From an uncultured Nitrososphaerota archaeon (GTDB taxonomy: Archaea; Thermoproteota; Nitrososphaeria; Nitrososphaerales; Gagatemarchaeaceae): 64,000 nt of DNA. The notes under the pieces are model-generated. The model saw only the letters and a list, made by a program, of their open reading frames with translations, did no database searches and had not been told where the DNA came from. Below are positions 3,173 through 33,791 of this stretch, piece after piece. Made by a program: the position numbers and the translations under genes. The stretch is from the NCBI GenBank assembly GCA_963718895.1, contig CAVRAG010000007.1:64001-128000 (forward strand). The letters run 5' to 3'. Position 1 is the first letter of the stretch, and every line of letters begins with the position of its first letter.

Positions 3173-4186
3173 CTACTCTGTTTCACCGGGTCGGAAGTGG
3201 GGGAGAACCTTCTTCTCGAAGAGGTTGAACGCCTTCTCGTCGTCGAACGTGTTGATCTGGACGTAGGCGTGGTCGAAGCCGCACTTGAAGTACTGCTCGA
3301 TCCTCTTGATGATCTCGTTCTCGTCGGTCGCGACGGGGAACACCTCGGCGAGCTGTTCGTCGGTAACCGCCTTCCCCCTCTCCTCTATCTGTCGGGGGTC
3401 TGAGATGTCTGTCGTGAACATCTCGTTGATCAGGGTCGCGGCCCACTTCCTCAGCGTCTTGACCGCGCGGTCGTAGTCCTCGTCGTAGGCCAGGTCTATC
3501 TCGACGACCTTCACGAGGTCGGCCAGCGTCCGACCGGTCTTCTTCGCGCCCTCGGCCACGTTCGGGAAGATGACCTCGTTGATGTACTGGGGCGTCTTCG
3601 CAGAAGTGATTATCCCGTCCCCGTACTCCCCGACGATCTTGGACATCTTCGGTCCCATGGCCGACATGATGATCGGCACGTCGGACTTCATGTAGATGTT
3701 CGCACCCTTGAGCTGGTAGTACTCTCCCTCGAAGTCGACGAACCCGCCCCTCCAGAGCGCCTTCATCATCTTCACCGACTCGATCAGCCTGTCCCTCCTC
3801 TCGGCGTACTTCGGCCAGGGATAGCCTAGGGGGACCTCGTTCATCGCCTCGCCGGTCCCGATGCCCAGCATCACCCTGTGGCCGAATAGCGCCTCCATCG
3901 TTGCGAAGGCCTGGGCGGTTATCGCCGGGTGGTACCTGAAGATCGGAGCCGTGACGGCCGTGCCGAAGGGTATCTTGACCTGCTCCATCGCCGCGCCCAT
4001 CCACACCCAAGTATTGTATTCGGTCGCGCCGGTGTGAAACCAGGGATGGAAATGGTCGCTCACCCAGATTGCATCGAATCCTGCCCTTTCCGCGCGCTGG
4101 CAGAGCTGGACAAGCCTCTTGGGCTCCACCATGTCGGGGCACGCGTTGAAACCTATCGAACCCCTTTCCAGAATCGGTAGCGGCAT
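3173..4186 (-). CDS. F420-dependent LLM oxidoreductase, G6PDH/FGD-like family
   Basis: SDHFHPW, RYHPAITAQAFAT, LGIGTGEAMNE, GEYYQL motifs. Confidence 0.85.
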   Translation of the reverse strand: MPLPILERGSIGFNACPDMVEPKRLVQLCQRAERAGFDAIWVSDHFHPWFHTGATEYNTWVWMGAAMEQVKIPFGTAVTAPIFRYHPAITAQAFATMEALFGHRVMLGIGTGEAMNEVPLGYPWPKYAERRDRLIESVKMMKALWRGGFVDFEGEYYQLKGANIYMKSDVPIIMSAMGPKMSKIVGEYGDGIITSAKTPQYINEVIFPNVAEGAKKTGRTLADLVKVVEIDLAYDEDYDRAVKTLRKWAATLINEMFTTDISDPRQIEERGKAVTDEQLAEVFPVATDENEIIKRIEQYFKCGFDHAYVQINTFDDEKAFNLFEKKVLPHFRPGETE

Positions 4187-4228
4187 GTTCAGGAGCGAGG
4201 TCGGACGGTAGATAAGTCTAGGGGGCCC

Positions 4229-4252
4229 GCGGGGCTCCGCGTCGAGCCCCGC
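4229..4252. promoter_or_regulatory. Inverted repeat in the divergent LLM/iol promoter region (candidate operator)
   Basis: GCGGGGCTC-N6-GAGCCCCGC lying between two outward-facing TATA-like hexamers. Confidence 0.4.
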
Positions 4253-4287
4253 TAAGTTCTAAAGGCAGACGAAACGGTCAGTGCGAG

Positions 4288-5313
4288 ATGACGCGCGCCA
4301 AGTTCAATGCTTTCGAGTACCTGCCGGACAGCGCCTACAACCGGATCACAGATCTCAGGGTGAACGACCCAGACCTCCCCAAGCGCGAAGCGCGCAGGCG
4401 CGTGAGGAGGGACACGCTGACCGACGACGGGAGGCTTGTGCTCCTAGCGGCAGACCACCCCGCGAGGATGACCACCTCAATCCGGGACGATCCCGTCAGG
4501 ATGGGCCGGAGGCAGGAGCTGCTCTCGAGGATCCTGAGGGTCGTCGCCGACTCTCCGTTCGACGGGGTACTCGGGACAGCGGACATCGTCGACGAGCTGC
4601 TGATGATCTCGCACATGGCCGGGAGAGCCTCGCCGTCCAGGTTCCTCAACAAGAAGGTGATCATAGGGAGCGTCAACAGGGGCGGCCTCAGCGGCAGCGC
4701 CTTCGAGCTCGACGACAAGCCGACGGGCTACGACGTCGACGGGATAGTCTCCATGAACCTGGACGGCGCGAAGTTCCTGCTCAGGGTCGACCTCGCGGAC
4801 CGGGACTCGGCCGAGACGATCGGCTACTGCGTCCAGACCGTCGCCGAGTGCAACCGTCAGAACCTCCCGGTCTTCGTGGAACCGCTCCCCATTTCGCTGC
4901 AGGACAAGAAGAAGAGGCTCGACGCGGACCCCCAGAAGCTCATCAAGCTCGTCGGGGTCGCGTCGGCGCTGGGCAGTTCTTCGACGAGGATCTGGCTGAA
5001 GCTGCCGTACTCGGAGAGGTTCGCCGAAGTGGCGAAGGCCACGACCCTTCCGATCCTGCTCCTGGGCGGCGAAGCGAACAAGGACGTGCGCGGCCTTCTC
5101 CGTGAGATCGAAGCGGCGATGAGCGCGGGGCCCAACGTCAGGGGAGTCCTGCTCGGCAGGAGCCTCCTCTATCCCCCCGACGAGGACCCGCTCCCCGTCG
5201 CGTTCGCCATTCACTCCATCGTGCACCACGGGATGACGGCCGCGGAGGCCGAGGCGCGGATGGAGGGTTGGGAGAAGAAGGAGGCCGCGCCCCTGTTTCG
5301 CGGTAACGATTAA
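4288..5313 (+). CDS. Cgl0159-like class I (TIM-barrel) aldolase, probable IolJ-type DKGP aldolase
   Basis: LAADHPAR, DGVLGTADI, GSVNRGGL, FELDD, WLKLP, LLLGG; first gene of the iol operon. Confidence 0.8.
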   Translation: MTRAKFNAFEYLPDSAYNRITDLRVNDPDLPKREARRRVRRDTLTDDGRLVLLAADHPARMTTSIRDDPVRMGRRQELLSRILRVVADSPFDGVLGTADIVDELLMISHMAGRASPSRFLNKKVIIGSVNRGGLSGSAFELDDKPTGYDVDGIVSMNLDGAKFLLRVDLADRDSAETIGYCVQTVAECNRQNLPVFVEPLPISLQDKKKRLDADPQKLIKLVGVASALGSSSTRIWLKLPYSERFAEVAKATTLPILLLGGEANKDVRGLLREIEAAMSAGPNVRGVLLGRSLLYPPDEDPLPVAFAIHSIVHHGMTAAEAEARMEGWEKKEAAPLFRGND

Positions 5314-5340
5314 AATACCTCGCACGGGCCTGTCTTCGTG

Positions 5341-7104
5341 ATGGCGTCCGAACAGCGGACAGGGGCTCAGTACGTCGTCGAGTCGCTGAAGAAGGCGGGA
5401 GTGAGGTACATCTTCGGAATCCCGGGGCACGGCAACGTCTCAATATTTGATGCGGCGCGTGACCTGGCGCCCGACCTCAACGTGGTCCAGGTCAAGCACG
5501 AGCAGTGGGGCGGTCACATGGCCGACGGCTACTTCAGGGCGAACAGGCGCGTCCCCGCTGCGGTCACGACCTCAGTCGGGCCGGGTGCGACCAACCTCGC
5601 CACGGCTTTCGCGACGGCCTACGTCGACTCGTCGACGTTCATCGCGATCACGGGGCAGATCCAGACCTATCTTTTCGGGATGGGGATATTCCAGGAGATA
5701 GAGAGGCAGCGCTGGGTGGACTACTGGAACTCCATGAACCACCTGATCAAGGGGTCCTGGCAGGTCACGACCGGCCGGCAGCTCCCGAAGGTGATGGCCG
5801 ACGCGATGCGGACCGCGCTCACTGGGAGGCCCGGACCGGTTCTCATCGACCTCCCCATGGACATTCAGGTCGAGAAGGTCTCCTACGGGCTTCCAGATCT
5901 GGCGCTTCACATGGCGGACGGGAGGGTCCGGCCCAGCTCGGAGTCCGTCAGAAAGGCGGCGGAACTGCTCCTCTCGGCTCAGAGGCCGGTGATCCTGATA
6001 GGCGGGGGCGTCGTGATGGCGGGGGCCACGAAGGAGCTGGTGGAGCTCGCGGAGTTCGTCGGGGCACCGGTGGTCTGCACGTTCAGGGGCGACTCCAAGG
6101 GCGGCTTCCCCGAGGACCACGAGCTGTACGCCTTCCACCCCGGGAACGTGGGGACGGCCGTCTCGAACGAGATAACGAAGGGGGCCGACGTGCTGCTTGC
6201 GGTGGGGACTACCTTCAGCGACGAGACGACGAGCTCGTACGTGCCCGGAGTCACTTTCAACATCCCGCCCACGAAGCTCATACACATCGACATCGACGCC
6301 CACGAGATAGGGAAGAACTACCCGACCACTGTCGGCATCGTCGCCGACGCCCGCGCAGCTCTCCAAGACCTTCTCGCCGCCGCGATGTCCCTGGGAACAA
6401 AGAGACGGTACCAAGAGTCGGCCTGGTTCGCCCGCCTGAAGGAGCTCAAGGCGGTGTGGGCGGAGGACCTCACCAAGCTGAGGCACGACGTGCCCATGGG
6501 GATCCCGAACCTCGTAGCGATAATGAGGGAGAGGCTCCCGAGGGACGCGATAATCACGCTCAGCGCAGGCCTTCCACAGGAGATACTGTCGCAGCAGTGG
6601 GTGGCCTACAGGCCGGGCACCTTCATCAGCTCCGGGGGATTCTCGACCATGGGGTTCGCCCTCCCGGCCGCCATAGGGGCCAAGCTCGCCCAGCCCAGGA
6701 CCAGCGTCGTGGCGATCGAAGGCGACGGGTCGTTCATGATGAACAGCGTCGAGCTCTCGACCGCGGTCCAGCTCCAGATGCCTCTGGTCGTCGTCCTGCT
6801 CAACAACAGGGGCTGGGTCTCGATAAGGGACCTGCAGATCCGCTCCTTCAGGAACAGGCTCATCAGCACGGAGTTCAACATGGCGGACGGCTCGGCCTAC
6901 GCGATCGATTTCGAGAAGCTCACGAGGGCCTACGGCGCCGAGTACCTCCATGCTGCCGACCCAGAGGGCTTCGGAAAGGCGCTCGACAAGGCGCTCGGGA
7001 TGCAGGTCCCGACCGTGGTCGAGGCGGCGGTTGAGCGGGTCTTCCCGAAGAGCGGCACGAAGTCGTTCGGATTCTGGGACATACCCTCGCCCTACGGGAA
7101 GTGA
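5341..7104 (+). CDS. iolD: ThDP-dependent trihydroxycyclohexane-dione acylhydrolase
   Basis: FGIPGHGNV, TSVGPGATN, GDGSFMM...NN ThDP motif; adjacent to iolC and iolB. Confidence 0.8.
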   Translation: MASEQRTGAQYVVESLKKAGVRYIFGIPGHGNVSIFDAARDLAPDLNVVQVKHEQWGGHMADGYFRANRRVPAAVTTSVGPGATNLATAFATAYVDSSTFIAITGQIQTYLFGMGIFQEIERQRWVDYWNSMNHLIKGSWQVTTGRQLPKVMADAMRTALTGRPGPVLIDLPMDIQVEKVSYGLPDLALHMADGRVRPSSESVRKAAELLLSAQRPVILIGGGVVMAGATKELVELAEFVGAPVVCTFRGDSKGGFPEDHELYAFHPGNVGTAVSNEITKGADVLLAVGTTFSDETTSSYVPGVTFNIPPTKLIHIDIDAHEIGKNYPTTVGIVADARAALQDLLAAAMSLGTKRRYQESAWFARLKELKAVWAEDLTKLRHDVPMGIPNLVAIMRERLPRDAIITLSAGLPQEILSQQWVAYRPGTFISSGGFSTMGFALPAAIGAKLAQPRTSVVAIEGDGSFMMNSVELSTAVQLQMPLVVVLLNNRGWVSIRDLQIRSFRNRLISTEFNMADGSAYAIDFEKLTRAYGAEYLHAADPEGFGKALDKALGMQVPTVVEAAVERVFPKSGTKSFGFWDIPSPYGK

Positions 7105-7110
7105 CCTGGC

Positions 7111-8088
7111 GTGTACGACATAGTCGCGCTGGGCCGCGCCGGTGTGGACCTATACTCGCTCGACTTCGGCGTCCCGTTCAGTGAGATCCGGAAGTTCGCC
7201 AAGTACGTGGGGGGGACCTCAGCCAACGTCATGGTCGGCGCGTCGAGGCTCGGGCTGAAGTGCGCGCTCCTCACGAGAGTCAGCAAGGACGTGCTGGGGG
7301 ACTACGTCATCCAGTACCTCGCAAAGGAAGGCGTCGAGACCAGGTACATCAAACAGGAACGGGACGGAAAGACCGGGATCGTCTTCGCCGAGGTATACCC
7401 GGGCAAGGACTCCATGTTCATCTTCTACCGTGAGAACGCGGCCGACCTGCACATCACGAGGGCCGACGTGCCTCGGACCCTGATCGAGCAGACGCGCTCG
7501 GTCATCGTGACGGGGACCGGCCTCTCGAAGGAGCCGTCCTTCGGGTCGAACCTGCACGCGGCGAGGCTCGGAAAGGAGCTGGGGAAGCTGGTGGTCTTCA
7601 ACCTCGACTGGCGACCCTCGCTTTGGCGCGCGAGCGAGCGCGTACGGACGTCGCGCTACAAGAGGGTCTTCGCCGAGTCGGCCGTCGTCGTGGGGAACGA
7701 GGGGGAGTACCTCGCCGCCACGGGCTCGGGCACGCTCTCCGAGGCCATATCCTCGATTCCGGGGCACGCGATGAAGGTGCTGGTGGTCACCCACGGCGGG
7801 CACGGCGTCTCGGTCATCGAGGGAGCGAGGAGGACGGAGGTCCCGGGCATACCCGTGCGCCTGGTGAAGGGGCTGGGCGGCGGGGACGGGTTCCTCGCAG
7901 GCTTCATGTTCGGATACATTAAGGGATGGAAGGCCGTCCGGGCCGCCAGCCTCGGAAACGCGGTCGGGGCGATGGTCGTGAGGGGCCACGCCTGCTCTGA
8001 GTCGATGCCCAGGCCGAGCGAGCTAAGGGAGTTCCTGAGGGGCAGGAAGATGGCCTTCGACCTGGAGACGCGCCCCTCCAAAGCCTAA
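7111..8088 (+). CDS. iolC: 5-dehydro-2-deoxygluconokinase (PfkB family)
   Basis: LGRAGVDLY, FAKYVGGTSAN, FYRENAADL, DWRP, GGGDGF, HACSESMP. Confidence 0.92.
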   Translation: MYDIVALGRAGVDLYSLDFGVPFSEIRKFAKYVGGTSANVMVGASRLGLKCALLTRVSKDVLGDYVIQYLAKEGVETRYIKQERDGKTGIVFAEVYPGKDSMFIFYRENAADLHITRADVPRTLIEQTRSVIVTGTGLSKEPSFGSNLHAARLGKELGKLVVFNLDWRPSLWRASERVRTSRYKRVFAESAVVVGNEGEYLAATGSGTLSEAISSIPGHAMKVLVVTHGGHGVSVIEGARRTEVPGIPVRLVKGLGGGDGFLAGFMFGYIKGWKAVRAASLGNAVGAMVVRGHACSESMPRPSELREFLRGRKMAFDLETRPSKA

Positions 8089-8132
8089 TATCGCCCTCGA
8101 GGCCGGCGCGGTCCAGGTGCAGCTAGCGCTTG

Positions 8133-8879
8133 ATGCACAGAGATGAAGGAAAACTAGACGAGTTCGAGGAGGTCTGTTCCGTCTCCAACCTCAGGGTGAG
8201 GAGACTGAGGATGAGGAAGGCGAAAGACCTCAGCAGGCTGGGCACGGGATCGACGGAGTCGCTGCTCGTCGTGCTCAACGGCGCCTTGCAAGTCAGGACG
8301 AAGGGGGCGAAGAAGGCGTTCTCCCTGGGAGAGAAGGACACACTCTATCTGCCCAGGCAGTCAGAGTTCTCGGTCGAGGCCACGCTGCCGACGGACCTGA
8401 TATGGGCCCAGGCTCCGGCCGAGAAGTCTTACGCCACCTATGTGAAGCGCTACGCAGAGGCCAAGGTGATCGAGTCGGGCGTCGCCCCGTACAGCAGGCG
8501 GGTGATAACCACCGTGGGGGAGGGCGACCCAGCCAACAGGTTCATCGCGGGCTTCGTCGAGGGATATCAGGGAAACTGGACGAGTTTCCCGCCCCACAAG
8601 CACGACGGGAAGCCGGAGGTCTACATCTACTTCGGCATGGGCAAGCGGTTCGGGGTCCAGGTGGTGGGGGGTACGGGCGAGGAGGAGGCCTTCGTCGTCA
8701 GGGACGGAGACGCGGTCGCCTTCGAGCGCGGCTACCACCCCAACGTCGCGACGCCGGGCGTCGGGATGAGCTTCTTGTGGATAATCAGCGCGGACCCCAA
8801 GGCAAGGACCCTGGCGGTCGAGTTCCATCCCGACTACAAGGACATGCCGATCGGAAAGACGCACCTCTCGTTGAGGTAG
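8133..8879 (+). CDS. iolB: 5-deoxy-glucuronate isomerase (KduI/IolB cupin)
   Basis: GNWTSFPPHKHD, EVYIY, GYHP. Confidence 0.9.
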   Translation: MHRDEGKLDEFEEVCSVSNLRVRRLRMRKAKDLSRLGTGSTESLLVVLNGALQVRTKGAKKAFSLGEKDTLYLPRQSEFSVEATLPTDLIWAQAPAEKSYATYVKRYAEAKVIESGVAPYSRRVITTVGEGDPANRFIAGFVEGYQGNWTSFPPHKHDGKPEVYIYFGMGKRFGVQVVGGTGEEEAFVVRDGDAVAFERGYHPNVATPGVGMSFLWIISADPKARTLAVEFHPDYKDMPIGKTHLSLR

Positions 8880-9129: not shown

Positions 9130-9606
9130 ATGCAAGCGAGAAGAAAGCGCATTCTCGCGGTAGCAGCGGTCGCGGTGATCGCGGTTCTAGTCGTGGTAGT
9201 GGTCTCCTTGGCCGAGTATCCGCAGGGTGGATCCCTCTCCAACAACCCCTGTCTGGGACCAGGCAGCTGTCTCTTCGCCGTGACCGGTGAGGTCGCCATC
9301 GATTCGGACCAAGGGGGAGGAATGGTAATCCTGACCGTCGTCAACCACGCGAACCTCCCGTTCATCAACATCACGCTAGTTGACGCCAGTCCCACCCTGC
9401 CCGGGCTGACAGGGTTCACACCATTCACCTACGATGGGAGGGTCGTCAATGCGCTCCACGTGCTGGACATAGGGAACAACTCGACGGGCTACTACTCTTT
9501 CAGATACGGCGGGACTAGCGCGACGTCTTACACCTTCACCCTGGCGGCGATTATGTCAAACGGTCAAATCATCACAGAGGAAGCGAGCATAGTGTCGGAT
9601 TCCTAG
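9130..9606 (+). CDS. Hypothetical N-terminally anchored membrane protein
   Basis: Basic N-terminus, TM helix, beta-rich extracellular part. Confidence 0.65.
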   Translation: MQARRKRILAVAAVAVIAVLVVVVVSLAEYPQGGSLSNNPCLGPGSCLFAVTGEVAIDSDQGGGMVILTVVNHANLPFINITLVDASPTLPGLTGFTPFTYDGRVVNALHVLDIGNNSTGYYSFRYGGTSATSYTFTLAAIMSNGQIITEEASIVSDS

Positions 9607-9721
9607 GCTCGCGAGGGCGGGCTTCCTTCGGCCAGTCAGACCTCCAGGGCCGGGACGATGCCACCGGACGCGGTGGGCAATATCTTTAAGCCCGCAACAT
9701 GCCCGAATGCGCGCGTATCGC

Positions 9722-10963
9722 TTGGCGAACAAATCTTCATTGGCAATGAACGGCGGAAAGCCGGTAAGGGACGGCCCTCTACCCGTGATGCATCCGGGCG
9801 CGGGGTACGTGGGTAAGGAGGAGATCGAGGCGGTCACCAACGTCCTCAAGGCGAAGTCGATGTACCGCTTCTATGGGCCGAAGTTCCTGAACATCACCGG
9901 CCAGTTCGAGGACGACATGAAGGCCTACTTCGGACGGAAGTACGCCCTCGCGGTCACCTCCGGAACCGCGGCGCTACACACGGCGCTCGTCGCGATGAGC
10001 ATAGGACCCGGCGACGAAGTGATCATCCCGACCTACGCCTGGGTCGCGTGCCCGGACGCCGTCGTCGCCGCAGGGGCCACGCCCGTCCTCGCCGACGTCG
10101 ACGACTCCCTGACCCTCGACCCCGCGGACGTCGAGAGGAGGATAACGAACAGGACCAAGGCAATCATGGCCGTGCACATCCGTGGGACGCCCGCGAACCT
10201 GGACGGGCTCTCGAAGGTCGCCAAGGCCTACGGCATAGACCTGGTCGAGGACGTAGCCCAGGCTGCAGGCGCCACCTACCGCGGCAAGAAGCTCGGGACC
10301 TTCGGCAGGGTGGCCTCGTACAGCTTCCAGCTCAACAAGATGATCTCGGCGGGAGAGGGCGGCGCGATCCTCACCGACGACAAGCTCATCTATCAGCGCT
10401 CCGTCATGTTCCACGACGTAGGGACACCCTATAGGTCCTGGGACGACCCGAGCCTCAAGTTCGACTTCGAGGCATTCCCGGGGGTCAACTACAGGATGAA
10501 CGAGATCTCGGCGGCGATCCTCAAGGAGCAGCTCAAGAAGATCGACTGGATCATCAAGGACATCAAGAAGAACAAGGCGAAGATCAAGAAGGGAATCTCC
10601 GACATCCCCGAGATCACGTTCAGACGCCTCAACGACCCAGGAGAGGCCGGGATCTCCCTGGTCTTCTTCACGAAGAAGCCGTCACAGGCTCTGATCTTCA
10701 AGAGGGCCCTTCGCGCCGAGAACATCTGGACGACCTCGGGCTCCTATCCCGGGGTGGTCTACGACCCGTCGATCAACGACGGCCACGTCTTCATGCACTG
10801 GGGGCACATCTTCAAGGGCATACAGCGGGTCAGCAAGAGGTACCAGGCGAGCATCGACCTCCTGAGCCGAGCGGTCCACCTCGACATCAGCCCGCTCCTC
10901 TCGGACTCGGACATGGACGACATCGTCACGGCCGTCCACAAGGTCGCAGATGCGATCCTCTGA
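9722..10963 (+). CDS. DegT/DnrJ/EryC1/StrS PLP aminotransferase (start could be 9707, 9722 or 9746)
   Basis: LAMNGGKPVR, TSGTAAL, EDVAQA, SFQLNKMISAGEGG (PLP Lys), GVNYRMNE. Confidence 0.92.
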   Translation: MANKSSLAMNGGKPVRDGPLPVMHPGAGYVGKEEIEAVTNVLKAKSMYRFYGPKFLNITGQFEDDMKAYFGRKYALAVTSGTAALHTALVAMSIGPGDEVIIPTYAWVACPDAVVAAGATPVLADVDDSLTLDPADVERRITNRTKAIMAVHIRGTPANLDGLSKVAKAYGIDLVEDVAQAAGATYRGKKLGTFGRVASYSFQLNKMISAGEGGAILTDDKLIYQRSVMFHDVGTPYRSWDDPSLKFDFEAFPGVNYRMNEISAAILKEQLKKIDWIIKDIKKNKAKIKKGISDIPEITFRRLNDPGEAGISLVFFTKKPSQALIFKRALRAENIWTTSGSYPGVVYDPSINDGHVFMHWGHIFKGIQRVSKRYQASIDLLSRAVHLDISPLLSDSDMDDIVTAVHKVADAIL

Positions 10964-10971
10964 GTGAGACG

Positions 10972-15290: not shown

Positions 15291-15307
15291 GACGCGGGCG
15301 TGGTCAA

Positions 15308-20802: not shown

Positions 20803-21315
20803 ATGCGACCGGCGGTACGGCGAAAGCTGCCGGCGGTGAAGATGGTCTCTGATTGGCGCAGGTCGTTCGTAGAGATTCTGGACAGGCCTGCGTCAGAGCT
20901 TCAGGGCCATCAAGCCTTCAAGCCTAACCAGAAACTCCTGGCGCTCTGGGCTGCGGACTGCGCCGAGCACGTGCTTCCATACTTTGAGGAGAAGCATCCG
21001 AAGGACGACAGGCCCCGAATAGCGATTGAAGCATGCCGAAGATGGGTGCATACCGGCGTGTTCAAGATGGCTGTCATACGCAAGGCCTCGCTGGACTCGC
21101 ATGCCGCAGCCCGTGAAGCGAAAGAGAATGATGCGATTGCTGCCGCCCGCGCGGCGGGCCACGCGGTCGCCACCGCGCACGTCCCCGACCATTCCATAGG
21201 TGCTGCTGTGTACGCCGCCAAAGCCGCCGCCGCCCATTCTGGCAGTGTGGATGACGGCCTCGTGAGGGAACGCAATTGGCAGCTCCGACGGTTGCGTCGC
21301 TTGGCTAACGCGTGA
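20803..21315 (+). CDS. Imm5-like putative immunity-domain protein
   Basis: LWAADCAEHVLPYFE...DDRPRIAI...AARAAGHAVATAHV...ERNWQ. Confidence 0.75.
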   Translation: MRPAVRRKLPAVKMVSDWRRSFVEILDRPASELQGHQAFKPNQKLLALWAADCAEHVLPYFEEKHPKDDRPRIAIEACRRWVHTGVFKMAVIRKASLDSHAAAREAKENDAIAAARAAGHAVATAHVPDHSIGAAVYAAKAAAAHSGSVDDGLVRERNWQLRRLRRLANA

Positions 21316-25822: not shown

Positions 25823-26881
25823 TTGAGATCCACCCAAACTCGTCTCAGATTCGGTCTGGCAGAGATAAGCGCGGAGCCGCAGCAGGCGGTGGAGGACGGA
25901 GTCCTCGCAGAGAAGGCCGGCTTCGACTCGCTCTGGGTCCCCGATCACATAGTGGACGTGAACGGTGACAAGCTCGAGCCCTGGACCGTGCTCTCGGCCG
26001 TCGCGGTGCAGACCAAGAAGATCGAGCTAGGGCCGGCTGTCACCGACACGCAGCGCGCCCACCCCTCGCGGACCGCCCACGTGGCGACGACCCTGAACCA
26101 CATCTCGAAGGGGAGGGTCCTGCTCGGGATAGGCGCGGGAGAGGCCATGAACGTAGTGCCCTACGGGCTACCCTGGGGCGAGCCTGCGGAGCGGGCCGCC
26201 CGGCTGGAGGAGGCGGTGAAGGTCATCAAGCTGCTCTGGTCGAGCAGCAGGGAGCAGACGGTCTCCTTCTCGGGCGCTTACTACTCGCTCAACAAGGCCT
26301 TCATCAGCCTAGGGCAGTACGGGGGCGCTCCCCCTCCCGTTTACGTCGGCGCCATGAACGCCCGGACAACGCTGGAGCTGACCGGGAGGATGGGCGAGGG
26401 ATGGTTCTGCTGGTTCAACACCCCGGAGACCTTCGCGAAGAAGTGGAAGGTCGTCTCCGAGGCCGCCAGGACGGCTGGGAGGGACCCGAGGAAGATAGAC
26501 ACTTGCTCCCACCTCATGATAGCGTTGCCTCGCAACTCGGAGGAGAGGAAGTCCGCCATGCTCGGGGCGAAGGCCACGCTGCTCATGGAGCGAAGGACCC
26601 TCGCGAGCATGGGCTACGAGGTGCCTGCTGACTTGCTCCAGTACCAGAATTTCACCATCTCCAAGGACTACGTCGCCGCCATAATGGAGAGGGCCTCGGA
26701 AATTCCCGAGGAGTACGTCCACCGGTGCATGGCCATCGGGACGCTCGAAGACGTCGACCGGCTGGTGGAACAGTTCGCAAAGGCCGGCATCAAGCACATA
26801 GTGATCGCGGACTTCCTGGCCCCCAAGACCACAAAGAAGACCATCCAAAGCCTTAGGAAACTGATAGCTTCGCATCACTGA
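25823..26881 (+). CDS. LLM-class (probably F420-dependent) oxidoreductase
   Basis: GFDSLWVPDH, LGIGAGEAMN, PPPVYVGA. Confidence 0.85.
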   Translation: MRSTQTRLRFGLAEISAEPQQAVEDGVLAEKAGFDSLWVPDHIVDVNGDKLEPWTVLSAVAVQTKKIELGPAVTDTQRAHPSRTAHVATTLNHISKGRVLLGIGAGEAMNVVPYGLPWGEPAERAARLEEAVKVIKLLWSSSREQTVSFSGAYYSLNKAFISLGQYGGAPPPVYVGAMNARTTLELTGRMGEGWFCWFNTPETFAKKWKVVSEAARTAGRDPRKIDTCSHLMIALPRNSEERKSAMLGAKATLLMERRTLASMGYEVPADLLQYQNFTISKDYVAAIMERASEIPEEYVHRCMAIGTLEDVDRLVEQFAKAGIKHIVIADFLAPKTTKKTIQSLRKLIASHH

Positions 26882-27157
26882 GCGCTCCTCCTCGATGGGC
26901 AACACGTGTGATGGACAGGAAGGGGTTAGCCATCTCTTAGGGTCCATGTCACAACCCGCTTGCAAGTCATGTCTCTCCGGTGACGAAGTCAAGGACTTGT
27001 TTGGCAATGATGGCTCTAGGGCGCCGAGAATCCAGGGAGACGATTCGCGGTCAGGCAACAGGCAGAGAGACGGCTCTCTCGGCGCCTACAGGTTTGCAAG
27101 CCCGATTAAGTTCAAATTCCCCCGAAGCAATTGGCCTGCGAGGTCTCACATCAACAC

Positions 27158-28174
27158 TTGAGCAGGACGGCCAACTCAGATTCCATCAATTCAGAACAGC
27201 GCGTCATAGCGTGGCTGCTCGAGGAAGATCAGCCCTCAGTCCGATATCGAACGCTAGTTGACATCCTGGGGCGCAAGGAATCCGATCCGGAAGCAAGAGA
27301 AGCCCGTTCAATGATTCCCAAGAAAGGCTGGGCCAACGACATCCTGAGGCTCCAGAAACCAAAGGGATTCTTTGAACCACGAGAGCCCAAGAGTGTCCGC
27401 AGTTGGGTGAGATTCCTGCACTTCCCGGAGTACCGTTCTACAGTTTGGCGAGCCTTGGTTCTCTCAGACCTTGGGCTCACTTCGGAAGACCCTAGGATAG
27501 GAAAGATCGCGGAAGTCCTCTTCGAGTACAAGCTTCAGCTGGGGACGCCGGTCAACTTCTTCACCGAAGAGGTTTGCATCGTCGGGAATACAGCGCGGAT
27601 GATGGCGCGCTTCGGATACGGCGACGACTACAGGGTCAGGAAGTTGTATGATAGGCTGCTTGAGGACCAGAAGGAAGACGGCGGCTGGAACTGTAATCAG
27701 AGCGAGCGCGGCGGTACTCTGGACAGCTGGGAAGCCCTGGCCGCCTTTGCCGCGCTGCCAAAGTCGAAGCGGTCCAGGAGGATCCAGCAGTCCATTTCGC
27801 GCGGAGCCGAATTCTATTTGGAAAGAAACCTGTTCGAGGAGGGCGAAGGAAAATACCTGCCCTGGTTTAGGTTCCACTATCCTGTTCACTACTTCTATGA
27901 CGTATTGGTCGGGTTCGACATGATCACGGCGCTGGGATATGCGGACGATCCGCGGCTCAAGCCCGCCCTCAAAGTGCTCAATGACAAACGCAGAAGGAAC
28001 GGAACTTGGCTTCTCGACAAAGTGCACCCCGACCTGGACACAGGCGCGAACGATGACCTTGTGAAGAGGGTGAAGAAGCTCAGGCCCTTTGCGTTGGAAA
28101 GGCCGGGCGAGCCGAGCAAGTGGATTACGCTCTTGGCCCTTCGAGCCCAGAAAAGAGTCGAGGACGCCAACTAG
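27158..28174 (+). CDS. Alpha/alpha-toroid (prenyltransferase/terpene-cyclase-like repeat) hypothetical protein
   Basis: WLLEEDQPSVRY, QKEDGGWNC, FHYPVHYFYDVL, PSKWITL; lower GC than neighbours. Confidence 0.75.
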   Translation: MSRTANSDSINSEQRVIAWLLEEDQPSVRYRTLVDILGRKESDPEAREARSMIPKKGWANDILRLQKPKGFFEPREPKSVRSWVRFLHFPEYRSTVWRALVLSDLGLTSEDPRIGKIAEVLFEYKLQLGTPVNFFTEEVCIVGNTARMMARFGYGDDYRVRKLYDRLLEDQKEDGGWNCNQSERGGTLDSWEALAAFAALPKSKRSRRIQQSISRGAEFYLERNLFEEGEGKYLPWFRFHYPVHYFYDVLVGFDMITALGYADDPRLKPALKVLNDKRRRNGTWLLDKVHPDLDTGANDDLVKRVKKLRPFALERPGEPSKWITLLALRAQKRVEDAN

Positions 28175-28477: not shown

Positions 28478-29626
28478 TCACCCAACCCTTAGCTTCTTGA
28501 TGACTTTCTCGTCTAGGTCGATGCCCAGTCCGGGGCCATCGGGGACCTGCAGCTTACCGTTCTTCACCACGAACTTCTGCTTCACGAGGTCGTGGACGAG
28601 CGGGTTGGGCTCCTGCTTGTACTCGCAGAGGAACCCGTCCGGAGAGGAGACGGCCAGGTGAAGAGACGCCGCGGTGTTCACGGCCGTCGACCAGTTGTGC
28701 GGGACCCACATGATGTTGTTGATGTGCGCCAGCTCCGTCACCCTCTTCATCTCCGAGATCCCCCCGACCTTGCTCGCGTCGGGCTGGAGGACGTCTGCGG
28801 CCCTCCGCTTTATCACCTCGTTGAAGTCGTAGACCGTATAGAGCTCCTCTCCGAAGGCAACCGGCACGTCGAGGGCCCTTGCGAGCTCCGCGTAGCCTTC
28901 CAGGTCGTCCTGTGGGAGCGCCTCCTCGAACCAGAACGCGTCGTACTTCTCGACCATCTTCCCCATCTTCACGGCGTATGGGACCCTCCAGTTGACGTAC
29001 CTGCCTACGTCGATCATCAGCCAGGTCTTGGGTCCGATCCCCTCCCGGATAATGGCCACCATCTCCTCGTCCTTTCGAAAGTCGGCGCCGAAGGGCTTCG
29101 AGGGGACCATGCCCCAGCCGAACTTCGTCCCTGCATAGCCCATCCGCGCGTACTTTGCCCCCTTCTTGGCGGTCCCCTCCGGGTCCTCCATGTCGAAGAG
29201 GAGGCTCGCGTAGAGGGGGATCTCAGTCTTGTACTGGCCTCCGAGGAGCTGGCACGCCCGGACGTTGAGGGCCTTCCCGGCGATGTCGACCAGCGCGGTG
29301 TCTATCCCGCTCAGCGCGAAGGTCGCAAGCCCCCTCAGGCCGTACCAGTACGTCGCCTCGTAGAGCCTCTCCCATATCTTCCGGAACTCGACGGGGTTCT
29401 CGCCCTTCACCCGCGGAGCAATCCCCCTCTCGATGAGCTCCTTCACGGCGTAGGCGGCCTCCCCGTTCTCGCTCCCCACGCAAGCCTCGCCCCACCCGTG
29501 TATCCCCTCGTCCGTGTCGACCCTCACGACGACCTGATACCCGGTGTACCCTCCTACGTTGGCCTCACCCTCATAGCTATCGTCCTGGGCGTAGAGGATT
29601 ATCGGCTCCACGTTAGTGATCTTCAT
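28478..29626 (-). CDS. Mandelate racemase/MLE-family dehydratase
   Basis: YAS, KFGWG, MID, WFEE, FGEE, QPD, PHNW. Confidence 0.9.
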   Translation of the reverse strand: MKITNVEPIILYAQDDSYEGEANVGGYTGYQVVVRVDTDEGIHGWGEACVGSENGEAAYAVKELIERGIAPRVKGENPVEFRKIWERLYEATYWYGLRGLATFALSGIDTALVDIAGKALNVRACQLLGGQYKTEIPLYASLLFDMEDPEGTAKKGAKYARMGYAGTKFGWGMVPSKPFGADFRKDEEMVAIIREGIGPKTWLMIDVGRYVNWRVPYAVKMGKMVEKYDAFWFEEALPQDDLEGYAELARALDVPVAFGEELYTVYDFNEVIKRRAADVLQPDASKVGGISEMKRVTELAHINNIMWVPHNWSTAVNTAASLHLAVSSPDGFLCEYKQEPNPLVHDLVKQKFVVKNGKLQVPDGPGLGIDLDEKVIKKLRVG

Positions 29627-29773
29627 GCTGACGCCGGTCACGGCGCCGGTCTCTATATCTCTAGCCCGTCCTCCGGCCGGGAAGCACCAGAGATCAGCCG
29701 ATTGGTCGGACCCCTTTGGCGACGTCGACCCGCGCGCCTTTTTCGCACAATCCTTGAATAGCCGTTTTGAGCG

Positions 29774-30571
29774 ATGCTAGCTGTGAATAGTGGAAGGCTC
29801 TCGGGGAAGGTGGCCGTAGTCACGGGGTCCGGGTCAGGGATAGGCAGAGGCATAGCGAGGCTCTTCGCCAGAGAGGGTGCGAGGACCGTCATCGTCGACA
29901 TCAGGCCGGAGGGCGGCGAAGAGACGCTTCGGCTCGTCAGGGAGGACGGCGGGGAGGGGATGTTCGTGCGCGCGAGCGTGCTCAGCTCGGATGAGATCAA
30001 GTCCATGGTTGACCAGGTAGTGAAGGCCTACGGAAGGATCGACGTCCTGCACAACAACGCAGGCGGGTGGCAGCTCGAGCAGCACGACACCGTGCTCGAC
30101 AACACCGAGGCTGAGTGGGACAAGCTCGTCGACCTTAACCTCAAGAGCATCTTCATCGTCTCGAAGCAGGTCATACCCCAGATGGTCAAGCAGGGAGGGG
30201 GCGCGATCGTGAACACCATAACGATAAACGCGTTCCTGACACAGCCCGGGACGGCGGGCTACAGCGCGGCCAAGGCGGGGGCCTACACCCTTACCAAGGC
30301 GATGGCGCTCGACTACGCAAAGAACAAGATCCGGGTCAACGGGATAGCGCCAGGCGAGATACTCACCCCTCTGTGGGAGAACAGCTACAACGGCCTTCCG
30401 AACTCAGAGGAGGTGAAGGCGTCGGTCCTCAGGAGGATACCTCTGGGGAGGTTCGGCACCCCCTCCGATGTGGCCTTCGCCGCGCTCTGGCTCGCATCGG
30501 ATGAGGCGCGGTACATCACGGGGCAGGTCATAACGGTCGATGGCGGGATCTCTGCGGGCGTCTACCCCTAG
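29774..30571 (+). CDS. SDR-family oxidoreductase
   Basis: TGSGSGIG, NNAG, YSAAK. Confidence 0.93.
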   Translation: MLAVNSGRLSGKVAVVTGSGSGIGRGIARLFAREGARTVIVDIRPEGGEETLRLVREDGGEGMFVRASVLSSDEIKSMVDQVVKAYGRIDVLHNNAGGWQLEQHDTVLDNTEAEWDKLVDLNLKSIFIVSKQVIPQMVKQGGGAIVNTITINAFLTQPGTAGYSAAKAGAYTLTKAMALDYAKNKIRVNGIAPGEILTPLWENSYNGLPNSEEVKASVLRRIPLGRFGTPSDVAFAALWLASDEARYITGQVITVDGGISAGVYP

Positions 30572-30684
30572 CCCCAGGTCGGCTCCGTCCGATCCTCGAG
30601 CGTGCGCGGGGTCCTCCTGGGCGACGCCAGCCGAGACACATCAGGTCAGGGTCTAAATAGGATGGGGACCTTTCAGGAGGGCCG

Positions 30685-31929
30685 ATGAACGGAATGATAG
30701 CCAACATCGCGCGGGCCCGAGACTACATGGAGGAGTTCGGCATACGGGCGCTCCTCGCCTCTTCGCCCACCAACGTAGCCTACCTCACGGGGTTCGACTG
30801 CTGGCTCTACGAGAAGTACACCGAGGACATGCTCGTGCTCGGCGCACCGAGGGCCAGAAAGGAATCCTTCGCCATCCTGGCCGAGAAGGGCGGTCCTGTC
30901 CTGGTGACAGACTCCTACTCCTCGCTCTTCGCGTGGGAGCTAAAGGGCGTAGAGCTGAGCTGCTACGGGTCGCCCCTGGCCGTGTCCGAGAGGGGGGCCG
31001 GCTCGCGTCACGCCATGTTCTTCGAGAAGGCCGTTGCCTCACAGAAGGCAACGCCGGCCGATGCGGTGATAGCTGCGCTCAAGGAAAGCGGGGTCAGCGG
31101 CGGCAAGGTCGCGGTCGAGGCCGCGGCGATGCGACCCGAGACGCTGAGGGCCCTCAAGAGGGCATACCCGCGGATAGAGTTTCTCGACGGCTGGCTCCTC
31201 CTCTGCCTGATCAGGATGGCAAAGTCCGAGACCGAGACCGGTCTGCTCACGACAGCGGCGAGGGTCAACGAGAAGGCGCTCTACAAGAGCCTCGAGTCCG
31301 CCGGGACTGGAGCGCGGATCTCCGACCTCGCGAGAAGGTACATGGTGGAGATGGCCAGAGGGGGCGCGGTCCTCGACCACTACTTCAACTCCCCCGACGG
31401 GCTCTGGCTCTCCGGCGCCGGGGGATACCGACTGAGACGGGGCGAGTACACGATCATGGACTCTGGATGCACGTTCGAACGCTATTTCGCGGACATGGGG
31501 ACGACTATACTCGTTGGGAAGAGGCGCCAGGGCGTGGAGAGACGGTACAGGGACATCTGGGAGACGGTGGACGAGGTCGCCGATTTCGTCGAGCCGGGCA
31601 CGACGCCCTCGGCCGCGATGGAGCGATTCAGGCGGGCCTACGAGCGGAGGAACATCCCCGGAGTCGACTACTCCGGACACGGTATAGGACTCGAGCCCAG
31701 GGAGTACCCGATAATGGGCCTCGGCGGTGCCAAGAAGATCCGCGACGGCATAGTCACGACCACCACGGAGCTGCCCTTCGAGCGAGGCATGGTGATCAGC
31801 CTCGAGACGAGCCTCTACGAGCCGGGCGAGGGGTCCTACGAGGTGGAGAGGACGTTCCTGGTCGGCAAGGGGAAGCTCCGTGAGTTGACGACGAAGAAGG
31901 ACTCTGCCATCTTCGTGACCGAGAACTAG
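30685..31929 (+). CDS. M24 (Xaa-Pro peptidase/creatinase fold) hydrolase
   Basis: NVAYLTGF, D-x10-D, GHGIGLE, SLE, VE metal ligands. Confidence 0.85.
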   Translation: MNGMIANIARARDYMEEFGIRALLASSPTNVAYLTGFDCWLYEKYTEDMLVLGAPRARKESFAILAEKGGPVLVTDSYSSLFAWELKGVELSCYGSPLAVSERGAGSRHAMFFEKAVASQKATPADAVIAALKESGVSGGKVAVEAAAMRPETLRALKRAYPRIEFLDGWLLLCLIRMAKSETETGLLTTAARVNEKALYKSLESAGTGARISDLARRYMVEMARGGAVLDHYFNSPDGLWLSGAGGYRLRRGEYTIMDSGCTFERYFADMGTTILVGKRRQGVERRYRDIWETVDEVADFVEPGTTPSAAMERFRRAYERRNIPGVDYSGHGIGLEPREYPIMGLGGAKKIRDGIVTTTTELPFERGMVISLETSLYEPGEGSYEVERTFLVGKGKLRELTTKKDSAIFVTEN

Positions 31930-32963
31930 TCGGTGAGGATTACCTTCACGTTGCCCGTCCGCTGGCTCGCGAGGTCTATGGCCTCCCTTGCGCTCCCGAG
32001 CGGGAAGCGGTGGGAGATGATGGAGGTAAGGTCGGTCTGGTTTCGCTGGAAGAACTCTATCGTCCTGGGAAACATCCCGGGGCTCCCCTGGGCGCCCTTT
32101 ACGGTCAGCCCCTTGGCGACCAGCTTCTCCATCTCGATCGGGATCTTCTTCATCATGGTCTGACCTATCAGCACTATGCGACTGGAGGTGTCGACTGCGT
32201 CGAAGACGGTCGACCTTGCCTGGTCCGAACCCGAGGCCTCGAGTGCCAGGTCCGCGCCGTGTCCCCCGGTCAGCTTCAGTATCTCCGCTACCGCGTCCTG
32301 GTTGACCGGGTCGATCACTTCGTCCGCACCAAGCTTCAGCGCAAGCGCCCTGCGCATCTCGATGGGATCGACCGAGATGGCCCTCGCGCGGGACCCCTTC
32401 ACCACGGCGAGCGCGAGCAGCCCGACCGGCCCAGCCCCGAAGACGACCACCGTCTGGCTCGGCTCCACGCCTCCCGCGAGCCCCCAGACAGCGTTGTAGG
32501 CTACGGTGAGAGGCTCGACGAGGCATCCCTGCTCGTGCGAGAGAGAGGGTGGGAGCCTCGAGAGGTTGCTCTCGTCGCGGACCACGTACTCGGCGTAACC
32601 GCCGGGAGACTGGGGCTGGAAGCCGTAGATCGTGGGGCTCCTGCAGAAGTTTGGGTTGGCACCGACCTTGCACTTGTCGCAGACCCCACACCCAACCACG
32701 GTCTCCCCGACGACCCTGTCGCCCTTCTTGAGCGTCGTGACGGCCTCGCCGACCTCTTCCACGTCCCCGGACCACTCGTGCCCCGGGACGAACGGGAAGA
32801 CCCCCTCGTAGGTCCTTCCGGTGTAGATGTTGACATCCGAGCCGCAGATGCCTGAGGCCCGAATCTTCACCAGGACCTGGTTCCTCGAGAGGGTCGGGAG
32901 GGCGACATCTTCCATGCGAAGGTCCAGCGGACCGTGGAGTACAGCGGCCTTCATCGAGCTCAC
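31926..32963 (-). CDS. Zn-dependent polyol dehydrogenase (MDR)
   Basis: GICGSD, GHEWSG, CGVCDKC...C, GAGPVG. Confidence 0.92.
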   Translation of the reverse strand: MSSMKAAVLHGPLDLRMEDVALPTLSRNQVLVKIRASGICGSDVNIYTGRTYEGVFPFVPGHEWSGDVEEVGEAVTTLKKGDRVVGETVVGCGVCDKCKVGANPNFCRSPTIYGFQPQSPGGYAEYVVRDESNLSRLPPSLSHEQGCLVEPLTVAYNAVWGLAGGVEPSQTVVVFGAGPVGLLALAVVKGSRARAISVDPIEMRRALALKLGADEVIDPVNQDAVAEILKLTGGHGADLALEASGSDQARSTVFDAVDTSSRIVLIGQTMMKKIPIEMEKLVAKGLTVKGAQGSPGMFPRTIEFFQRNQTDLTSIISHRFPLGSAREAIDLASQRTGNVKVILTD

Positions 32964-32975
32964 CGTCGCTCCAAC

Positions 32976-33791
32976 CTAGTCGCGCATCCCCAGCTCTTTC
33001 ATCATCCGCGCCGTCGAGGTGTAGCCGTCCCTCACCCACTCGACGATCTTGGCCGGCTCGGGAGACCACTCGAGCTCCATCTGGATGGCTCCTGTGTAGC
33101 CAATCCCCTTGAGCGCCGCGAGGTACTCCTTGAGCGGCACGACTCCCGACCCCGGAGGCCAGTGTGCGTGGACCCTCCCCTTGCAGTCGGCGAAGTGGAC
33201 GTTGAGCAGCCTGCCCTTCAGCTTCGCCAGAGTCTCGGGCGCGTCCCCGACGACGTACATGTGCACGAAGTCGACGTTGCCCTTGACGTATGGTCGGCCT
33301 GTGTCGTCGAGCATCTTGGAGAGCGTATCGACGGAGTTGATGATGTTGTGTTTCGGCGTCTCGAACTCGAGCCCGGTCTCGATGCCGAGCCCGTGGGCGT
33401 AGTCGGCTATCTCCCTGATCCCCTCGACGGCCCAGCCCCACTGTACCTTGGGGTCGACCTCCTGGCGCTCCCAGACGTACTCTCCGGGGACGAGTATCTG
33501 CTTGGTGCTCCCAAAGTCGTACCCGATGTCCACCTGTCTCTTGGCCCAGTCGATGGTCAGCCGTCGGATCTCTGCGTTGAGGTCGATGAGGCTCGTGAGC
33601 ACGATGGTAAAGTTCGAGCAGGGAAGTCCTGTCTCCTGAAGAGCCTCCCTCATCTTCCTCCTGAGCCGGGGCGTGAGGTCGACGGTGAAGATGCAGTACG
33701 AGTCAAAACCGCACCCCTTGGCGACCCTTATGCCCTCGACCCTGTCGACGGCGGTCCCCCACCAGGCGTTCTCGCTTATCGAGAGTTCCAA
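32976..33791 (-). CDS. Ketose 3-epimerase-like TIM-barrel isomerase (D-psicose/tagatose epimerase, IolO-like)
   Basis: LEFE, D-x2-H, HFAD, PGSG, YTGAIQME. Confidence 0.8.
   Translation of the reverse strand: MELSISENAWWGTAVDRVEGIRVAKGCGFDSYCIFTVDLTPRLRRKMREALQETGLPCSNFTIVLTSLIDLNAEIRRLTIDWAKRQVDIGYDFGSTKQILVPGEYVWERQEVDPKVQWGWAVEGIREIADYAHGLGIETGLEFETPKHNIINSVDTLSKMLDDTGRPYVKGNVDFVHMYVVGDAPETLAKLKGRLLNVHFADCKGRVHAHWPPGSGVVPLKEYLAALKGIGYTGAIQMELEWSPEPAKIVEWVRDGYTSTARMMKELGMRD

Follow-up and report, generated by a model that had tools for sequence, protein, structure and literature searches.

Putative cyclitol catabolism island of a Gagatemarchaeum-like thaumarchaeon encodes a candidate archaeal counterpart of IolD

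Introduction

The closest described counterpart of the locus reported here is the bacterial inositol pathway, IolG-E-D-B-C-J-A. The study that gives the IolCatGC definition records iol homologs in five archaeal genomes, the hosts named being Thermocladium modestius, Desulfurococcaceae and Halobacteriales; it found no experimental evidence in archaea and judged the Iol capability to be so far restricted to bacteria (PMC9430895). For the archaeal family Gagatemarchaeaceae, iolB, iolC, iolE, iolG and iolA have been listed as KEGG annotations, iolB/C/E/G being scored as gains, together with up to 12 copies of an "F420-dependent G6PD" gene and Fno (PMC10640624); the portion of supplementary file 4 consulted holds no row for iolD (K03336), for an aldolase or for "cof". 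Here we analyse a 64,000-nt stretch of DNA from an uncultured member of this family, hereafter the window (G000:C7:64001-128000; genome G000, 3.13 Mb, 80.5% complete). Positions 3173-33791 of the window form an island of 28 genes with iolC among them, and include a gene for a thiamine diphosphate (ThDP) enzyme that is a concrete and testable candidate for the ring-opening step missing from the family's published pathway.

Our locus shares with the account in PMC10640624 the family and the iol genes; the island, its DegT aminotransferase, the ThDP enzyme and the aldolase do not figure in the part of that account consulted. The iolB/C/E/G genes were thus already known in the family as annotations, and the ring-opening candidate is new. 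New in our analysis are an IolD-like family that probably closes this gap, Adf-like enzymes of the LLM family and the missing Fo synthase. Searches that left the subscription literature mostly outside found no description of an archaeal inositol pathway or of the present island, and none of an IolD-like family in archaea or of an inositol/cyclitol dehydrogenase that uses F420. An earlier sequence-only reading of the window had known of no characterised archaeal version of the pathway; this is weakened by the iolB/C/E/G genes of the family and the iol homologs of a few archaea that are already annotated in print.

Results and Discussion

Gene content of the island

Profile scans covering 99 open reading frames (ORFs) of the window with Pfam and 55 with NCBIfam assigned 24 of the 28 island genes to carbohydrate-type enzyme families. 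The sequence-only reading had counted about 23, and all of its family counts hold: four Gfo/Idh/MocA dehydrogenases, four Zn-MDR, three LLM, two AP_endonuc_2 TIM barrels, two enolase-superfamily dehydratases and one DegT protein. To these are added a Cgl0159-like aldolase, the ThDP enzyme, IolC, an IolB/KduI protein, an Fe-ADH/G1PDH-like protein, an aldo-keto reductase (AKR), a short-chain dehydrogenase and an M24 hydrolase. As that reading had also stated, there are no housekeeping genes within 3173-33791, the first ones (NnrD, APRT) appearing from 33873 on. Compared with 2873 G000 genes (from a crude gene caller, with split ORFs merged and the region picked post hoc), the island holds 4 of the 7 Gfo genes of the genome (P 2.5e-7), 4 of 16 MDR genes (P 1.2e-5), 3 of 23 LLM genes (P 1.3e-3), 2 of 4 TIM-barrel and 2 of 7 enolase-type genes, as well as the sole genomic copies of DegT, IolB and Cgl0159.

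We read the island as a locus for the catabolism of inositols and related cyclitols with the F420-linked LLM1 and LLM2 among its accessories, and assign to this whole reading a probability of about 0.6; that its core serves inositol catabolism, with the ThDP family as the equivalent of IolD, we consider highly likely. A cyclitol catabolic island in a soil or peat heterotroph of the Nitrososphaerota had been proposed from sequence, and our data support it. The sequencing runs with the largest shares of window DNA (0.36 and 0.24) are soil metagenomes, one of which may represent the original sample, and the host most likely belongs to the genus Gagatemarchaeum (Group I.1c Thaumarchaeota), because the island proteins are 76-92% identical to, and syntenic with, those of a Candidatus Gagatemarchaeum locus (L043). 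Cyclitols would be a candidate growth substrate for these abundant and poorly cultured archaea.

A ThDP enzyme family related to IolD

The strongest evidence for the role of the ThDP enzyme (5341-7104, + strand) is its co-occurrence with IolC. Conservation was assessed by DNA searches of 61 genomes of the family and in retrieved regions, with counts made per genome (some of the retrieved L loci duplicate regions of the G genomes). All nine family genomes with an IolC ortholog also carry the ThDP ortholog. Among 401 genomes of the phylum, IolC exceeds its cut-off in four, each of which has the ThDP ortholog, and an ortholog at 59% identity or more is present in just five of the 401. The corresponding Fisher P, calculated without G000, is 3.8e-7 and is overstated because two of the genomes are congeners. 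Canonical IolD was found in none of the five carriers tested, where the ThDP ortholog is the top match of the IolD model TIGR04377. From its sequence and context, the ThDP enzyme probably fills the IolD gap of the archaeal pathway.

Two established identities were considered for this protein and rejected. It is not a canonical IolD (TIGR04377, 302.3 against a cut-off of 715; position outside the canonical IolD clade), nor is it the large subunit of acetolactate synthase (ALS; TIGR00118, 418.3 against 538; no grouping with ALS), a separate gene for which is present elsewhere in G000. In our trees, from which eight short or very distant rows were excluded and the smaller of which comprised 28 rows chosen from 84, the ThDP family and IolD stand apart from ALS and the other enzymes (SH-aLRT 99 with 76 rows, 100/98 with 28 rows). 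The family is sister to the five IolD rows, which sit on a long stem, and is not nested among them. Placing the family and ALS on one side of the tree was rejected (p-AU 1.3e-4), under a constraint that also shut out four non-ALS outgroup rows. The GHGN motif of the enzyme is common to all five canonical IolD rows, the equivalent in ALS being GG, and residues H30, G31, N32, E54 and G461-D462-G463 are invariant in 46 aligned rows. The ThDP fold, the invariant E54, the GDG...NN motif and the N-terminal histidine (H30) are likewise found in IolD and in cyclohexane-1,2-dione hydrolase (2pgn/4d5g), the latter being only 23% identical to the island enzyme in the fold search. One of these entries, 4d5g, is titled as the H28A variant of the hydrolase; H28 is presumably an active-site residue.

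Several observations weigh against this assignment. The ThDP enzyme has 37-38% raw identity to ALS and only 27-31% to IolD, and of the conserved sites 29 agree with ALS and 18 with IolD. The long stem of IolD would account for these figures, which nevertheless leave the placement short of certain. Foldseek ranks acetohydroxyacid synthase first for the structure model (pLDDT 81.9) and recovers the general ThDP fold only; the PDB searches brought up no entry with IolD in its title, and the ESM Atlas matches are unnamed ThDP clusters. Furthermore, three of the family genomes (G004, G013 and G015; 70-88% complete) contain the ThDP gene and accessory genes, but searches of them for IolC, IolB, the aldolase and the transaldolase were negative; similarly, three retrieved loci (L049, L050, L057) have the ThDP ortholog and no iolC or iolB within about 10 kb on each side. 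Altogether, the ortholog occurs in 14 family genomes, 5 of them without IolC. Finally, in all five plasmid loci examined, bacterial relatives (40-44% identity) lie beside HisD-like and GMC genes and not beside iol genes. These loci (L115-L117, L119 and L120, from Rhizobium, Paracoccus, Priestia and Arthrobacter) also contain sugar or MFS transporters, and apparently represent an undescribed pathway.

Among named records the ThDP family is almost wholly archaeal (58-87% identity), with members in Nitrososphaerales, Sulfolobales, Desulfurococcaceae and Thermoproteales; more distant relatives (42-45%) are found in haloarchaea and some bacteria. Near the ThDP gene, genes for IolA, IolG-like and IolE-like proteins and an importer recur in loci of Nitrososphaerales, Desulfurococcaceae, Sulfolobales and Thermoproteales. 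In Haloterrigena turkmenica the gene next to the ThDP homolog passes the IolM cut-off (555 against 450) and a gene annotated as IolA-type is near, and in an actinobacterial locus (L068) a family member is followed by iolC, iolB-like and iolE-like genes. The family thus spans acid-soil Thaumarchaeota, the cultured Thermocladium and Metallosphaera and, more distantly, haloarchaea; since carriers include cultured archaea, a first archaeal inositol pathway could be tested by ordinary assays. Table S8 of PMC9430895 may hold the same ThDP genes as iolD homologs.

In two of the five carriers without IolC (G071 and G083), and in no other of the 61 family genomes, a gene for a 675-aa protein of the transaldolase family occupies the position of IolC; at the loci L047:11785-13812 (-) and L062:11765-13846 (-), a transaldolase-family protein of 675-693 aa replaces both IolC and the aldolase beside the ThDP gene. 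In the form found in G015 and G013 (L031-L032 and L126), in which IolB, IolC and the aldolase were not found, a GAPN-like aldehyde dehydrogenase is present, and G015 additionally has a D-serine-dehydratase-like pyridoxal phosphate (PLP) enzyme and a DMFase-like gene nearby; this form is possibly a kinase-free variant of the island. A second ThDP subfamily of the Nitrososphaerales (42-44%, with a GH-A/T motif; L015, L060, L065, L067) has MDR, DhnA-type aldolase and ECF/ABC genes as neighbours, and a further ThDP enzyme occurs in L060 and G032.

Remaining enzymes of the core route

The sequence-only reading had described a lower inositol operon. This description holds for IolC (5-dehydro-2-deoxygluconokinase; 7111-8088, +), the only Iol protein here to exceed its curated cut-off (TIGR04382, 321.4 against 300), and for the adjacent IolB-like 5-deoxy-glucuronate isomerase (8133-8879, +; PF04962, 116 bits), a single-copy gene in G000; the supposed IolD is not canonical. 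Together with the ThDP gene both lie within 5341-8879, so that at least three of iolB/C/D/E are found, by homology, within 10 kb. On the other side of the balance, IolB (TIGR04378, 91 against 205), IolE (80.5 against 290) and IolG (336.9 against 355), like IolD, miss their curated cut-offs.

Upstream of the ThDP gene lies a Cgl0159-like class I aldolase (4288-5313, +; PF22649) that is 40% identical to the aldolase of a Streptomyces iol operon, the gene for which is flanked there by iolC and iolB. By homology it probably fills the IolJ step, in which 2-deoxy-5-keto-gluconate-6-phosphate yields dihydroxyacetone phosphate (DHAP) and malonate semialdehyde. Non-IolJ aldolases have been proposed for this step in the case of DUF2090, and in the part of the source consulted not in that of Cgl0159 (PMC9007349).

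Both TIM barrels had been taken for isomerases. This fits TIM2 (32976-33791, -), which has an epimerase-type Glu at the first metal site, is of the ketose/inosose epimerase-isomerase type and has D-psicose 3-epimerases as its PDB matches. TIM1 (19809-20555, -; 248 aa) instead looks like an inosose dehydratase of the IolE type: IolE is its sole NCBIfam match and a His occupies the first metal site, as in IolE. A paralog of TIM1 is encoded at G000:C8:1124932 (IolE score 79.5, also below 290). The best candidate for inositol 2-dehydrogenase (IolG, TIGR04380) is Gfo3 (17626-18645, +), whose top PDB matches are mostly inositol dehydrogenases; Gfo3, the IolG-like Gfo1 (10972-11989, +) and a paralog on C8 fall into a single archaeal clade (support 99) close to annotated IolG. 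An intact ortholog of Gfo1 in L125 scores 318 against the IolG cut-off of 355. The reading frame of Gfo1 itself is broken by one extra base at 11529, which is missing from a contig of sequencing run X1 and from all five aligned orthologs; for this reason the frameshift is probably an assembly error, and an interpretation of Gfo1 as a pseudogene was rejected.

None of the 28 island genes encodes IolA. The candidate in G000 is unlinked (C7:192604-194042; 371 against 448.5); compared with G001, whose ortholog passes the IolA cut-off, it lacks one base and is split at that point. Single-base gaps or internal stops were also seen in Fno (C7:847900-848523); together with those in IolA and Gfo1 they suggest scattered assembly errors in G000, the read check having been made for Gfo1 only. 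A family-5 ABC system is a candidate importer for the island, to judge from its position and homologies: the 5' part of the gene for its substrate-binding protein occupies 1-754 (-) of the window, its start possibly lying further upstream than called, and a second family-5 binding protein and an Opp-type transporter follow upstream (G000:C7:52208-64754). Related SBP5/Opp genes lie inside the compact cores of relatives, and the IolG-like, IolE-like and binding-protein genes of those cores sit apart in G000, at C8:1123912-1127597.

In the route that we propose, the family-5 importer would bring in the substrate, which IolG-like Gfo3 and Gfo1 would oxidise to inosose. The IolE-like TIM barrel (TIM1 or the C8 paralog) would dehydrate inosose to the cyclic 1,2-dione, whose ring the non-canonical ThDP enzyme, as the proposed hydrolase, would open to 5-deoxy-glucuronate. 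IolB would then isomerise and IolC phosphorylate this product, the Cgl0159-type aldolase would cleave it into DHAP and malonate semialdehyde, and the unlinked IolA would lead on to acetyl-CoA. Like the bacterial pathway, the predicted route combines a member of the IolC family with clustered IolB-, IolE- and IolG-like genes and a ThDP enzyme; it differs in that the ThDP enzyme belongs to a sister family of IolD, the aldolase is of the Cgl0159 type, the IolE-like protein is short and far below its cut-off, IolA is unlinked in G000 and the importer is a family-5 ABC system.

Conservation of the island

The extended island is found in 7 of 21 congeners (G001, G002, G004, G005, G011, G013 and G015). 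MDR1-3, Gfo2, Gfo4, AKR and Eno1 are present in all seven, LLM2 and Eno2 in six, LLM1 (adjoining the aldolase gene, at the same position) and Fe-ADH in four, and LLM3 in three. The block of M24, MDR4 and TIM2 is kept in G002, G005, G013 and G015 and was not found in G001 and G011. In G013 and G015 the gene order is shuffled and the genes remain together. Conversely, the orthologs of the ThDP enzyme and of IolC are both missing from 13 congeners, one of which is the single-contig G007. A compact core, composed of DegT, IolG-like, IolE-like, family-5 ABC importer, aldolase, ThDP, IolC, IolB and IolA genes, occurs in G003, G035, G067 and G085, and the variant form in G071 and G083.

That unrelated redox genes have gathered here by chance, a possibility that the sequence-only reading had itself raised, is largely refuted by this comparison, because in relatives the accessory genes keep their linkage to the core: they are present all-or-none and remain clustered through rearrangement (G015:C51, G013:C156, G002:C32), notwithstanding four passenger ORFs inside the island, two of which match only island-negative genomes.

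LLM enzymes and coenzyme F420

LLM1 (3173-4186, -; divergent from the aldolase gene) exceeds the cut-off of the F420-dependent LLM subfamily (TIGR03557, 229 against 210.4), which is missed by LLM2 (21460-22443, +; 181.9) and by the more distant LLM3 (25823-26881, +; 108.8), for which no NCBIfam cut-off was reached. An identity of LLM1 and LLM2 as F420-dependent glucose-6-phosphate dehydrogenases (FGD) was rejected (TIGR03554, 274.9 and 175.8 against 420). Their top PDB match is the F420-dependent secondary alcohol dehydrogenase Adf (1rhc), and both keep the DHFxPW and GEAxNE motifs of Adf, FGD1 (3b4y) and Mtb-FGD2. In FGD1 the phosphate is bound by K198, K259 and R283 (PMC13434993); LLM1 keeps K198, and the positions of K259, H260 and R283 are changed. 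Because most of the FGD phosphate site is lost, LLM1 and LLM2 are probably not glucose-6-phosphate dehydrogenases, the label "G6PD" is probably wrong for them, and they could act on ring alcohols. By extension, some of the many "F420-G6PD" genes of the family may be alcohol or polyol dehydrogenases. When Fo is available, LLM1 and LLM2 would probably serve as F420-linked secondary-alcohol dehydrogenases, with Fno handing the electrons to NADP.

G000 contains cofC, cofD and cofE. In G000 and the tested relatives, cofC, cofE and Fno exceed their cut-offs in 5/5, 2/2 (family members) and 5/5 genomes, respectively, and cofD is present in 52 of the 61 family genomes; cof genes of G000 were noted at C7:167266-169652. 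The genes for Fo synthase, cofG and cofH, were each found in none of the 61 family genomes; in the order as a whole, 51 of the 101 genomes have a cofH above its cut-off. CofG/CofH or FbiC are described in a review as universal for the synthesis of Fo (PMC8498797). A family without cofG and cofH has to import Fo or F420 or to synthesise it along some unknown path; this suggests that the whole family is auxotrophic for Fo or has an Fo synthase of unknown type, and sets it apart from the Adf and FGD systems. A dependence on external Fo would, if true, matter for cultivation.

The sequence-only reading had proposed a partial use of F420, which our data support only in part. In favour of it are the Adf-like character of LLM1 and LLM2 and their incomplete phosphate site. 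The lack of cofG and cofH tells against it, as do the absence of cofE from all three crenarchaeal carriers and that of any LLM gene from the retrieved DNA of five compact cores (in G071 an LLM gene lies about 13 kb off). Moreover, LLM1 has a near-twin elsewhere in G000 (609 against 621 bits) with no sugar genes beside it. For the first three reasons the F420 wiring is accessory, and the core can do without F420. In six of seven haloarchaeal loci, the gene directly upstream of the ThDP homolog encodes a member of a separate FGD/Adf clade; a common origin with LLM1 is not supported by the tree, in which this fork is open. Yet another LLM of this family adjoins IolA in G013 and G015.

Accessory enzymes and alternative functions

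The additions seen in Gagatemarchaeum (paralogous dehydrogenases, an epimerase, an aminotransferase and dehydratases) would widen the range of isomers and derivatives used, and may include a second, kinase-free exit. Such an exit is suggested by Eno1 (24521-25696, -), an acid-sugar dehydratase, because in haloarchaea, Metallosphaera and Thermocladium its relatives (clade support 93) are encoded close to the ThDP gene.

A block formed by the M24/creatinase-fold hydrolase (30685-31929, +), MDR4 (31926-32954, -) and TIM2 resembles the IolM-IolN-IolO route that Thermotoga maritima reportedly uses (names as in the NCBIfam models). IolM is the top match of MDR4 and of MDR3 (16565-17587, +), IolO that of TIM2, and the hydrolase adjoins MDR4 and TIM2 as a separable block. 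The likeness ends with the scores, all of which are below cut-off (NF041097, 255.6 and 233.4 against 450; NF041099, 52.9 against 300), and with the hydrolase, which has the M24 fold and no IolN-named match. MDR4 clusters with MDRs of haloarchaea (support 90), and one of these exceeds the IolM cut-off. A broad funnel, with F420-dependent, Adf-like oxidation of inositol isomers or amino-inositols, two ring-opening routes (ThDP and IolM/M24/epimerase) and Fo either scavenged from other microbes of the soil or made by an unknown synthase, appears doubtful to us. The funnel to inosose and then DHAP imagined in the sequence-only reading does find candidates for every lower step, and is weakened at its entry by Gfo2, Gfo4 and DegT.

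Gfo2 (14142-15290, +; 307.8 against 650) and Gfo4 (18652-19773, +; 360.5) do not reach the cut-off of the levoglucosan dehydrogenase model NF052479, and they match it better than IolG, which counts against cyclitols as their substrates. The core could accordingly serve inositol catabolism with the accessory enzymes and LLMs, merely co-located, acting on other soil sugars (levoglucosan or 3-keto-glycosides, L-sugars, sugar acids) and F420 playing no part. The top NCBIfam matches of Eno1, which are galactonate/gluconate dehydratases, point the same way, as do the compact cores that lack most accessories and the LLMs, the 22-23 LLM genes of G000, and the report that an FGD-family enzyme without phosphate pocket oxidises glucose (PMC13434993). 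On the other hand, the accessories are all-or-none with the ThDP gene in seven congeners, with no orthologs found in 13 ThDP-less congeners; the family of Gfo2, whose PDB matches are 6a3f and next the scyllo-inositol/L-glucose dehydrogenase 5ya8, includes a scyllo-inositol dehydrogenase; and LLMs of the FGD/Adf family stand by the ThDP homolog in haloarchaea and by IolA in G013 and G015. We regard this separation of core and accessories as rather unlikely, and favour cyclitols as the substrates of both.

The DegT-family PLP aminotransferase (9707-10963, +; PF01041) is a candidate entry point for amino-cyclitols or amino-sugars. Most Nitrososphaerales loci have retained a DegT gene next to the core, with 59-92% identity. 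This raises the question of whether the true substrate is an amino- or deoxy-cyclitol or related ring sugar, with DegT as the deaminase and the ThDP, IolE-like and IolB-like enzymes tuned to that skeleton; that every core enzyme but IolC is under its Iol cut-off and that the importer is of the peptide-type family 5 would agree with it. However, DegT is absent from the retrieved DNA of the crenarchaeal and haloarchaeal clusters, IolC, IolA and IolM exceed their cut-offs in carriers, and DegT is nearer KdnA (5k8b, 199.9 bits) than perosamine synthase (166) or the inosose aminotransferases (BtrR/RbmB-type, 2c7t, 5w70, 7b0d; 131-148), none of these members of the DegT family being a close relative. 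Plasmid searches returned no close annotated relative of DegT and one unannotated record (36%). We hold such a specialised substrate to be improbable.

DegT enzymes are mostly biosynthetic, and the Fe-ADH/glycerol-1-phosphate-dehydrogenase-like oxidoreductase (22424-23434, +; PF13685; NF002022, 131 against 413) has a weak N-terminal match to dehydroquinate synthase. A biosynthetic cluster for an aminocyclitol, a lipid head group or a glycan sugar is nonetheless very improbable, given that none of the 28 genes, scanned against Pfam and NCBIfam, codes for a nucleotidyltransferase, a glycosyltransferase or an inositol-phosphate synthase and that the kinase, aldolase, IolA and importer genes indicate breakdown.

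The remaining accessory genes encode MDR1 (11986-13143, -), a Zn-dependent dehydrogenase that is also near the ThDP gene in L049, L050 and L069 and has no close annotated relative in plasmid searches (about 34%); its paralog MDR2 (15308-16462, +); the AKR (23428-24459, -; PF00248); Eno2 (28478-29641, -), beside NnrD in some congeners; and the short-chain dehydrogenase (29774-30571, +). At the apparent start of Gfo4 (18652-18654), G000, G001 and G011 have ACG, G005 has ATG, and G013 and G015 have TTG, and in G002 an ATG lies one codon earlier. A frameshift was rejected as an explanation on this comparison with relatives, and the ACG is possibly a conserved non-canonical start codon.

Passenger genes and neighbourhood of the island

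Four ORFs inside the island encode no enzyme. A small membrane-anchored protein, probably a passenger (9130-9606, +; no Pfam match; G+C content at third codon positions, GC3, 0.73), has a similar ORF at the equivalent place in L043, and a membrane protein without family (13208-14068, -; no Pfam match) has orthologs at the equivalent place in L042, L125 and L137. The Imm5-like ORF (20803-21315, +; PF21805; GC3 0.68) and an ORF with no family over cut-off (27131-28174, +; GC3 0.70), both passengers, have matches in island-negative genomes, the former only there. The GC level is flat over the island, the 64,000-nt window contains no tRNA, and a promoter and terminator scan of the window was uninformative, the consensus used being bacterial and the host an archaeon.

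At the left edge of the island, at about 2490-3150 (+), translations reveal an AbrB-type antitoxin and a PIN-domain protein (a VapBC-like pair), the PIN frame of which looks broken. Further left, a secreted Ser/Thr-rich protein without family (1033-2286, +) is kept beside LLM1 in L042, L043 and L045. On the other side, at 48086-53328, a KaiC-like ATPase gene is followed by CHAD, two thymidylate-kinase-like and Ppx/GppA genes, possibly a polyphosphate cluster. Beyond the window, translations point to further catabolic clusters at G000:C7:179000-196500 and C7:665000-675000, which contain TIM barrels, MDRs, M24 paralogs, an HpcH-like aldolase, enolase-type dehydratases and a DHDPS-like aldolase.

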